Source: Alphaproteobacteria bacterium
GTDB lineage: Bacteria > Pseudomonadota > Alphaproteobacteria > CAAHEQ01 > UBA3637
Length of the DNA: 64,000 bases
Assembly: GCA_017960645.1 (NCBI GenBank)
Contig: JAGCYU010000004.1
Span: forward strand, 7,152 to 71,151
Direction: 5' to 3'
Positions 61,057-61,676 of this stretch are shown here, piece by piece; the first letter of the stretch is position 1, and the number at the start of each line of letters is the position of its first letter. The notes beneath the pieces are model-generated. The model had not been told where the DNA came from and searched no databases. It worked only from the letters and a program-made list of their open reading frames with translations. The position numbers were made by a program, and so were the translations under genes.

Positions 61057-61323
61057 ATGACAAACGAAGAAAACAGAGCTAAAGAAAGAAAAAAATTATT
61101 AATGTATGCACAATTGTTCCGTTTTGGAAGCTATGCATCTATGGGATTGTCTTTGTTAGGATCGCTTGCTGTTATTAGCGCCGCGATTCATGGTAAATCA
61201 GGTAAAGAGGTAGTGGGATATTTGTTAGGGACTTTTATTGCTACCGCTCTTGCTGAGACTTGTCTTGATGCCAGGTTCTGTATTGCCGCTAAAATAAGAG
61301 GGCATGATAAAGGCATATACTGA
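61057..61323 (+). CDS. small two-TM membrane protein (88 aa)
   Basis: Strong promoter and RBS. Basic N-terminus followed by two hydrophobic helices separated by HGKSGKE. Its stop overlaps the next ATG (TGATG). Confidence 0.55.
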   Translation: MTNEENRAKERKKLLMYAQLFRFGSYASMGLSLLGSLAVISAAIHGKSGKEVVGYLLGTFIATALAETCLDARFCIAAKIRGHDKGIY

Positions 61324-61676
61324 TGCCAAATGGTGAAACGCGTTTGGTGTTAAAGTTGAAAAAACATTTGTCACCTGTTAAAGTGGCTGTAATTCCTTTG
61401 AAGCGCAATAATGAACAGATTGTTACTTTGGCGCACCAGATCAAAGAGGATTTATTAAAAACAGGTATCGGGCGAGTTATGTTGGAAGATTCTGGCAATA
61501 TCGGCAAGGCCTATCGTCGTCATGATGAAATTGGTACCCCAATTTGCATTACTGTGGATTTTGAATCTATTGAGCAAAGCCCTGCAACAGTTACTTTGCG
61601 TAACCGTGACACGATGGCACAGGAACGTGTAGCTGTGGCTGATTTGCCAAAATATTTAAAAGAATTCTTTCTGTAA
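61323..61676 (+). CDS. free-standing paralogue of the GlyRS C-terminal anticodon-binding domain (117 aa)
   Basis: ATG-initiated. About 99% amino-acid identity to GlyQS residues ~338-453, while about a quarter of codons differ synonymously. Translationally coupled to the upstream ORF. Confidence 0.6.
   Translation: MPNGETRLVLKLKKHLSPVKVAVIPLKRNNEQIVTLAHQIKEDLLKTGIGRVMLEDSGNIGKAYRRHDEIGTPICITVDFESIEQSPATVTLRNRDTMAQERVAVADLPKYLKEFFL

Follow-up and report, generated by a model that had tools for sequence, protein, structure and literature searches.

A free-standing anticodon-binding domain downstream of glyQS in an uncultured alphaproteobacterium: displaced gene end or young gene?

Introduction

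Single parts of aminoacyl-tRNA synthetases (aaRSs) may exist as separate proteins, as in the case of Trbp111 and CsaA, which are free-standing tRNA-binding domains of the aaRS type. The subject of this work is an open reading frame (ORF), referred to as copy B, that encodes only the 117-residue anticodon-binding domain (ABD) of glycyl-tRNA synthetase (GlyRS) and that lies shortly downstream of the full-length gene, glyQS, whose 3' end (copy A) it repeats. Both copies are embedded in a stretch of 64,000 nucleotides (hereafter, the window) from an uncultured gut/rumen alphaproteobacterium, and the copy B protein is also an NCBI record from a metagenome-assembled genome (MAG), MBP5343658.1. On balance, copy B is probably a lineage-specific 3' end of glyQS, displaced or duplicated via illegitimate recombination at a variable spot, and not an old independent gene.

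The displacement of rhs genes was reportedly dealt with by Jackson et al. in 2009, a study that Kirchberger et al. (2017) refer to on this point. Homology-facilitated illegitimate recombination was put forward as a mechanism for the displaced 3' parts and orphan modules found in Rhs, contact-dependent inhibition (CDI) and type VI secretion system (T6SS) effector-immunity loci (Kirchberger et al. 2017, PMC5361080). The locus described here resembles such C-terminal displacements, in that an insert lacking in relatives separates an intact gene from a displaced 3' part of it, the two alleles differ as those of separate lineages do, and exchange between the copies follows. However, it departs from Rhs, CDI and T6SS loci since glyQS is a housekeeping aaRS gene, with no immunity gene, no variable toxin tip and one displaced copy; moreover, copy B has a start codon and its own predicted promoter, and its donor was not found.

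Other comparisons come from aaRS-derived proteins. The free-standing editing domains YbaK, ProXp-ala and AlaX (PMC3973320) are, like copy B, single aaRS domains encoded by autonomous small ORFs, and the binding of a tRNA in trans would be the analogous role; nevertheless, they represent old, widely conserved paralogue families with their own signatures and tested activities, whereas copy B is 98% identical to its parent, occurs in one species and is known from sequence. As for the duplicated aaRS genes of bacteria, of which 25,913 cases have been counted in 26,837 genomes (PMC4787780), the likeness is that one genome contains aaRS sequence twice and that the copies might interact, but those genes are full-length and catalytically competent, whereas here only the C-terminal 26% of GlyRS is duplicated. 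Lastly, the accessory subunit of Pol gamma (POLG2) is a GlyRS-like protein in which the ABD fold has been reused beyond aminoacylation, and POLG2 chains are among the matches of a fold search with copy B (template modelling score, TM, of about 0.8; sequence match 5c53_B); unlike copy B, POLG2 is a eukaryotic protein of ancient origin, which still has its catalytic-like domain and whose identity is down to 22-25%. The literature searches brought up no class IIa (HGTP) anticodon-binding domain that is free-standing and has been characterised.

Results

Copy B and its parent gene

The copy B ORF is an intact, complete class IIa anticodon-binding domain of the GlyRS type, encoded alone. Its product matches positions 1-93 of the 94 of the Pfam profile PF03129 (HGTP_anticodon) with 82.2 bits (cut-off 21) and residues 381-501 of the T. 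thermophilus GlyRS with an E value of 3e-34; its AlphaFold model, with a predicted local distance difference test (pLDDT) of 87, reaches a TM of 0.86 to the structure of the same enzyme (1ATI). The first residues (about 1-19) correspond to the interdomain linker and are modelled with low confidence. The full-length GlyRS encoded upstream has orthologues in related gut/rumen Alphaproteobacteria that are 82-97% identical.

The two copies can be aligned over 354 nt with no gap and 33 nucleotide differences (90.7% identity), and they form the sole direct repeat of at least 40 nt within the window. The original prediction concerning this locus had counted about 28 differing codons with two amino-acid changes; the alignment gives 30, that is, 28 synonymous and two non-synonymous ones, the latter being codon 1 (TTG in copy A, ATG in copy B) and codon 17 (GCG and TCA, Ala and Ser, respectively). 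Neither a frameshift nor a large number of non-synonymous changes, both of which had been named as contrary evidence, was observed. The Nei-Gojobori method (NG86) yields a dS of 0.54 and a dN of 0.011, so that their ratio (omega) is 0.02, far below 1, as had been anticipated. The 403 nt existing between the copies contain only a terminator, a promoter and the ORF smpA, and no similarity was detected beyond the stop codons of copies A and B.

Meaning of the low dN/dS

The comparison with full-length genes of the same group allows this omega value to be read in its context. Between full-length orthologues and either copy, 2-5 of the 117 residues and 14-20% of the nucleotides are different, and the ABDs of orthologous full-length pairs exhibit omega values of 0.005-0.04, with dS ranging from 0.8 to saturation. 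Since these pairs give the same omega, the low dN/dS between copies A and B is not diagnostic of selection on the free domain; the protein sequence of the ABD is nearly frozen across the group, and hence any two of its alleles, however joined, show divergence of the synonymous type only. Apart from Met1, copy B harbors no amino-acid change that is private with respect to the full-length orthologues; Ser17 is shared with seven of them (P0126, P0129, P0131 and P0133-P0136).

Patchy divergence between the copies

The differences between copies A and B are not randomly distributed (P = 7e-5) and, as originally predicted, cluster at both ends, leaving identical runs of 22, 16 and 16 codons. In three blocks, i.e., nt 1-69 (14 differences), nt 171-216 (six) and nt 285-351 (12), copies A and B are at a species-level distance from each other, while nt 70-170 and nt 217-284 contain one and no difference, respectively, against the 14-17 and 6-16 existing between species. 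When the three diverged blocks are pooled, dS is 1.76 and omega 0.008, values like those of orthologous pairs (dS from 1.2 to saturation, omega 0.005-0.04), and in the two outer ones third-position identity is about 52%. Outside the near-identical tracts, copy B differs from L090 (one of the related contigs, designated here by L numbers) by 25 nucleotides, from L086 by 26 and from copy A by 32; judging from these counts, the two copies appear no closer to each other than to the genes of other species.

The central identical blocks are thus real, and gene conversion, as suggested for them at the outset, is a fair reading, although the tracts might also be the patchy products of a single recombination event, which can yield mosaic tracts of this kind (PMC13344027). 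They would carry almost no information on selection since the copies began to coexist. Polarisation of the 33 differences with outgroups placed changes on both branches, but the synonymous saturation of the outer blocks makes the assignment unreliable.

The junction upstream of copy B

The homology to glyQS extends beyond the start codon of copy B. The 20 nt ahead of the ATG (61303-61322), ATGATAAAGGCATATACTGA, match the glyQS codons for MMQAYTE, and directly after them 8 nt of glyQS (AGAAACTT) are absent. This remnant is identical to the sequence of L088 (ATGATGCAGGCTTATACTGA) at 17 of 20 positions, a score equalled by 1 of 2000 shuffles, and to those of L086 and L003 at 16 of 20 (4-13 of 2000 shuffles); in every comparison, the match falls at the corresponding position of glyQS. 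The excision of the 8 nt converts ...ACTGA-AGAAACTT-TGCC... into ...ACTGATGCC... (GAAGAAACTTTG becoming GATG), so that one 8-nt deletion created both the TGA stop codon of smpA and the ATG of copy B. Since this deletion accounts for the ATG, a T-to-A point change is unnecessary. The original prediction had invoked such a Leu-to-Met change, giving a start codon exactly at the homology boundary; with the homology running 20 nt further upstream, the deletion is the simpler explanation.

As a consequence of this arrangement, the last six to seven codons of smpA, together with its TGA, consist of out-of-frame DNA derived from glyQS. No glyQS homology was found either upstream of the 20-nt remnant or past the stop codon of copy B. 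Overall, a glyQS allele is represented by about 380 nt, running from codon ~330 to its stop; they are located 384 nt downstream of the intact gene and abut unique DNA at about 61303, near which the junction is placed. The catalytic-domain type of the fragment is that of the window's own clade (MMQAYTEE), not the divergent one of L012-L020. The coordinates of all these features, and of those described below, are reported in Table 1.

Table 1. Features of the glyQS region in the window (positions are those of the 64,000-nt stretch).
Feature	Position	Strand	Evidence
glyQS, full-length alpha2-type glycyl-tRNA synthetase, 453 aa	59558..60919	+	ORF; Pfam tRNA-synt_2b and HGTP_anticodon
Copy A, ABD-coding 3' end of glyQS (codons 337-453 and stop)	60566..60919	+	gap-free alignment to copy B
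Segment without counterpart in syntenic L091/L092 (cassette and GGDEF gene)	60929..63358	+	
Intrinsic-terminator hairpin after glyQS, 12-bp stem followed by UUUUUGU	60938..60966	+	centroid -18.8 kcal/mol, z -3.1
Predicted sigma-70 promoter, TTGACA-17-TATAAT with TG extension, 12/12 match	60999..61027	+	consensus match only
smpA, 88-aa ORFan, two predicted hydrophobic helices, AAGGAG ribosome-binding site	61057..61323	+	
Decayed glyQS remnant (codons ~330-336, MMQAYTE), followed by the 8-nt deletion	61303..61322	+	junction alignment
Copy B, free-standing 117-aa GlyRS ABD ORF	61323..61676	+	ORF; alignment to copy A; PF03129
Putative gene-conversion tract 1 (nt 70-170, 101 nt)	61392..61492	+	1 difference from copy A, against 14-17 from sister species
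Putative gene-conversion tract 2 (nt 217-284, 68 nt)	61539..61606	+	0 differences from copy A, against 6-16 from sister species
smpB, 81-aa ORFan, two predicted hydrophobic helices, AAGGGA ribosome-binding site	61697..61942	+	
Intrinsic terminator closing the smpA-ABD-smpB unit	61960..61997	+	-17.2 kcal/mol, z -6.2

Distribution and synteny

The identical 117-aa protein is encoded by seven contigs with the same arrangement, two of which (L001 and L087, from separate samples and assemblies) were read. Over 8,678 nt, L001 shows no difference from the window and L087 shows two, both of them inside copy B and 8 nt apart (L087:6156 and 6164, corresponding to 61478 and 61486 of the window); one difference is synonymous (GTT>GTG), and the other (GAA>GGA, E55G) affects a residue that at least 90% of ABDs conserve. 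The population, as sampled, is nearly clonal. The double difference of L087 may represent a variant under relaxed constraint, a multinucleotide event or a sequencing error.

In the related species, the picture is a different one: a second ABD copy, smpA or smpB was found within 6 kb of glyQS in none of the 80 loci analysed, and the search for similar stand-alone ABD ORFs among relatives, proposed together with the original prediction, yielded none in the same 80 loci; other short matches, from a collection of protein clusters, were fragments or frameshifted full-length genes. The cassette is missing from four sister lineages (L088/L089, L090, L091/L092), whose GlyRS is at least 90% identical to that of the window and whose glyQS DNA is about 87% identical. 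These lineages and the window have the upstream gene order MutY-ClpB-orf-MlaA-MlaC-orf-glyQS in common, and L091/L092 also share with it the downstream genes RarA-RluD-AsmA; between glyQS and rarA, they carry an unrelated 275-aa gene on the opposite strand. The homology to every relative ends 2-9 nt past the stop codon of copy A, and the DNA located 3' of the glyQS stop differs in each close relative (window 60920-63358; L088:7363-8272; L090:5921-6798; L091:7363-8328; L086:619-874): L088 and L090 encode there a homologous single-helix protein of 249 and 242 aa, respectively, and L086 a response-regulator-like start. From these comparisons, the 3' flank of glyQS appears to be a rearrangement-prone spot, and the cassette a recent, lineage-specific addition. 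Copy B is hence not conserved across species, being confined to a single nearly clonal one, nor does it follow a trajectory of its own, given that no private residue except Met1 is present and that parts of it are identical to the parent gene via conversion.

A separate observation concerns the domains of GlyRS itself. Between the window and L012-L014 and L017-L020 (e.g., L019:6001-7368), the catalytic residues 1-336 are about 60% identical and the ABDs 93-97%; the switch falls in the linker, between AYTEE and LPNGETR, which is the same place where copy B starts. The ClpB-MlaA-MlaC synteny upstream is shared with the window by L013 and L018-L020 and not by L003-L006, whose catalytic part is 82-84% identical. 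That this discordance stems from the ABD having recently spread by horizontal transfer was rejected, since the DNA of the shared-type ABDs is only about 80% identical; with this value, the discordance would be either an old domain swap or the outcome of an extreme constraint on the ABD.

Searches for other stand-alone domains

The candidate GlyRS ABDs of about 117-130 aa retrieved from a collection of 5.8e9 protein clusters turned out to be artefacts: that of L002 belongs to a long-read assembly full of frameshifts, and those of L083 and L085 to low-coverage contigs with in-frame stops inside full-length genes. In L084 (343-720), a single 3.6-kb metagenome contig from another organism, an ABD stretch starting with LKLKKHLAP follows unrelated sequence and an oppositely oriented gene; it may be a truncated GlyRS 3' end or the result of a chimeric assembly. 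A degenerate pattern of the TGATG-MPNGETR junction, searched in metagenome DNA, gave 31 hits, all of them unrelated (e.g., FlgG-like and ribosomal proteins). The phage and plasmid collections contained only distant matches, with 37-50% identity, whose annotated records are glycine--tRNA ligases.

The surrounding unit

Copy B is flanked by two ORFans, smpA and smpB. The stop codon of the 88-aa upstream ORF overlaps the start codon of copy B (cTGATGcc, i.e., UGAUG in the transcript), just as the original prediction had noticed, and the 20-nt spacer following the stop codon of copy B contains the AAGGGA of smpB. The in-frame codon-usage scores of smpA (0.198) and smpB (0.282) are within the range of the real genes of the window, whose true frames score 0.32 +/- 0.09 and whose wrong frames score -0.53. 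Neither ORF has a homologue in the 5.8e9 protein clusters, and a test of their paralogy was negative for both protein and DNA, with 600 and 948 of 2000 shuffles, respectively, scoring equally well. Scans of the region and of the window for Rfam families or tRNA genes found none. With a promoter ahead and intrinsic terminators on either side, the expression of copy B is plausible; this promoter probably drives transcription of the unit, with termination-reinitiation at the UGAUG as the likely means of translating the ABD.

Some further observations can be made on the regulatory and coding potential of this region. A 5-bp hairpin at 61312-61327 (GGCAU-auacug-AUGCC) would pair the start codon of copy B with the end of smpA, which would suit a translation of copy B that depends on ribosomes terminating on smpA, and its fold is no better than that of shuffled sequences (z -0.9). 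An antisense ORF of 129 aa (61591-61980, minus strand) shares its DNA with smpB and with the 3' end of copy B. One of the reverse-complement frames of the smpB segment, possibly that of the antisense ORF, has a codon-usage score of 0.25, against the 0.28 of smpB; because the scores of the two strands are similar, codon usage alone does not tell which strand at smpB, if any, is the coding one.

On the other side of glyQS, orf109 (59157-59486) encodes a small protein that evolves fast and has a signal of the lipoprotein-like type (...SGAGC / ...AAGGC), and it is located between mlaC and glyQS in all the close relatives (L088:5504-5926; L090:4016-4486; L091:5451-5927). The proteins of the window and of the sister species are 33-45% identical over short stretches, against 70-97% for the flanking genes. 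A terminator-like hairpin after orf109 (59506-59537, 14 pairs followed by a T-run) overlaps the -10 box of a promoter-like site of glyQS (TTGACT-17-TATAAT, 59499-59527), hence the termination of the upstream gene and the initiation of glyQS may share the same DNA.

Discussion

The origin of copy B can be outlined as follows. Two alleles of a nearly frozen ABD would have been joined either by C-terminal displacement, in which a related species' DNA takes part in homology-facilitated illegitimate recombination, or by a partial duplication, the former being the most economical route. Gene conversion between copy B and the functional glyQS, in either direction, would then, or concurrently, have homogenised parts of the two copies, so that the synonymous divergence might have built up inside functional full-length genes and/or might be upheld by conversion; under these circumstances, selection on the free domain is not required. 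Two features expected of a C-terminal displacement are indeed observed: DNA that relatives lack lies between an intact gene and a homologous 3' fragment of it, and the 3' parts differ as alleles of separate lineages do (dS 1.76). The restricted distribution, the presence of ORFan neighbours, one of which has an accidental C-terminus, and the polymorphisms found only in copy B favour displacement. The observed pattern is also exactly that expected from the scenario which the original prediction had itself set against its interpretation, i.e., a 3' end displaced by the DNA of a relative. As for that interpretation, the intact domain, the low omega, the overlap, the conversion and the plausible expression stand, whereas selection on the free-standing protein is unproven: low dN/dS, a gained ATG and coupling had been taken to argue for it, but orthologues have the same omega, the unconverted blocks are species-like and private residues are lacking. 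Copy B is classified here as a partial gene duplicate or displaced 3' end, tied to its parent by gene conversion, and its product, predicted to be a catalytically dead, monomeric domain binding the tRNA(Gly) anticodon, is for now best regarded as a young by-product, neutral or mildly tolerated.

A number of observations weigh against the displaced or duplicated gene end. The 28-nt remnant shows one indel and two replacement-type changes, whereas neither an indel nor a private replacement is seen in the 354-nt ORF, which suggests that constraint acted after the fragment had formed; this contrast, with very few events behind it, is the one argument that still favours constraint. It would be an unlikely accident for a lone deletion to yield an in-frame ATG that overlaps a stop codon and falls exactly in the linker ahead of the domain, and the perfect promoter, the good ribosome-binding sites and the genome-typical codon usage of the ORFans look like those of a working operon. 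Furthermore, no sampled full-length glyQS closely matches the diverged blocks of copy A or B, neither a donor allele nor a donor flank for the inserted DNA was found in the other lineages searched, and a 36-mer specific to copy B had 0 hits in metagenome contigs. Part of this evidence would be accommodated if the free ABD were a functional gene under purifying selection, provided with its own promoter, coupled to smpA and acting in trans on the anticodon arm of tRNA(Gly), with occasional conversion by glyQS; as to its role, one can guess at tRNA sequestration or protection, a decoy, a modulator of GlyRS, or a regulator or partner of membrane peptides. We consider this possible and clearly less probable than the displacement of a gene end. 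It is consistent with an omega of 0.02, with an intact, confidently folding domain that begins in the interdomain linker, with an ATG and a UGAUG coupling that arose together, with the terminators, with the purely synonymous nature of the B-derived changes in the centre, at least three in number (nt 183, 210 and 216), and with the presence of the arrangement in all seven contigs found with the copy B protein. Nevertheless, copy B occurs in a single, nearly clonal species and in none of the relatives examined, it has no private residues, and the bimodal divergence leaves the near-identical tracts uninformative on selection after duplication; in addition, E55G segregates at a site that hardly varies otherwise, both partners are ORFans, with the C-terminus of smpA being accidental out-of-frame glyQS, and no comparable stand-alone GlyRS ABD exists elsewhere in the material searched, the apparent ones being frameshifted or low-coverage full-length genes. 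The idea that the GlyRS ABD has recently gained expression of its own as a 117-aa protein, with translational coupling to a membrane peptide of de novo or ORFan type and with selection and conversion keeping it intact, is put forward as a tentative and somewhat doubtful one; if correct, it would show a trans-acting aaRS-domain paralogue at the moment of its birth.

Three other explanations deserve less credit. An ancient tandem duplication of a unit made up of the glyQS 3' end and a small membrane-protein gene, with smpA and smpB as paralogues changed beyond recognition and the ABD copy kept by selection, would suit the synonymous saturation of the outer blocks, the similar lengths of the segments 60920-61302 (383 nt) and 61677 to ~62060, and the fact that each of them encodes a two-helix peptide with a basic N-terminus; it is improbable, however, because smpA and smpB are not significantly similar and not collinear within the units, an event predating the sister-species radiation would imply no fewer than three to four independent losses, conversion tracts of intermediate age are lacking, relatives with a glyQS-smp pair lacking the duplication have so far not been found, and the DNA after copy A is not repeated after copy B, though it may have diverged beyond recognition. 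With just 403 nt between the repeats, no integrase or mobility gene there or nearby, and a 354-nt repeat that would be atypically long for an attachment (att) site, it is even less credible that copy B is the remnant of an att-site duplication left by an integrative element that targeted the glyQS 3' end and brought a replacement for it. Such an element would explain direct repeats of a gene end flanking inserted DNA with the intact gene restored, a 3' flank that varies among relatives, and the family-wide discordance between ABD and catalytic domain with its breakpoint in the same linker; but that discordance, given the ABD DNA identity of about 80%, is old and not what a circulating element has left behind, and in none of the 80 related loci do the 6 kb around glyQS contain the ABD a second time. 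Finally, since the organism is known only from metagenome assemblies, an assembler could have joined two strain haplotypes of the glyQS 3' end in series; this is highly improbable, as the structure, with its 403 nt of unique DNA, is present in seven contigs, including L001 and L087 from different samples and assemblies, and in the NCBI MAG record, and the specific 8-nt deletion at the junction is not expected from a haplotype switch.

The case documents a rearrangement resembling C-terminal displacement at a housekeeping aaRS gene, a process known mostly from polymorphic toxin loci. If copy B were functional, a class II synthetase would have given rise, very recently, to a free-standing module for tRNA binding, and to a tractable one for the origin of trans-acting proteins that consist of aaRS domains; a free binder of the tRNA(Gly) anticodon could, in that event, sequester or shield tRNA(Gly), e.g., from anticodon nucleases, or tune GlyRS. 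If, on the other hand, it is only a displaced gene end, it represents a cautionary case, in which a pairwise dN/dS between a gene and its fragment is far below 1 without being proof of selection on the fragment. Three situations may make such a comparison misleading: a protein that is nearly invariant throughout the clade, copies that possibly descend from different alleles, and gene conversion that links the copies.

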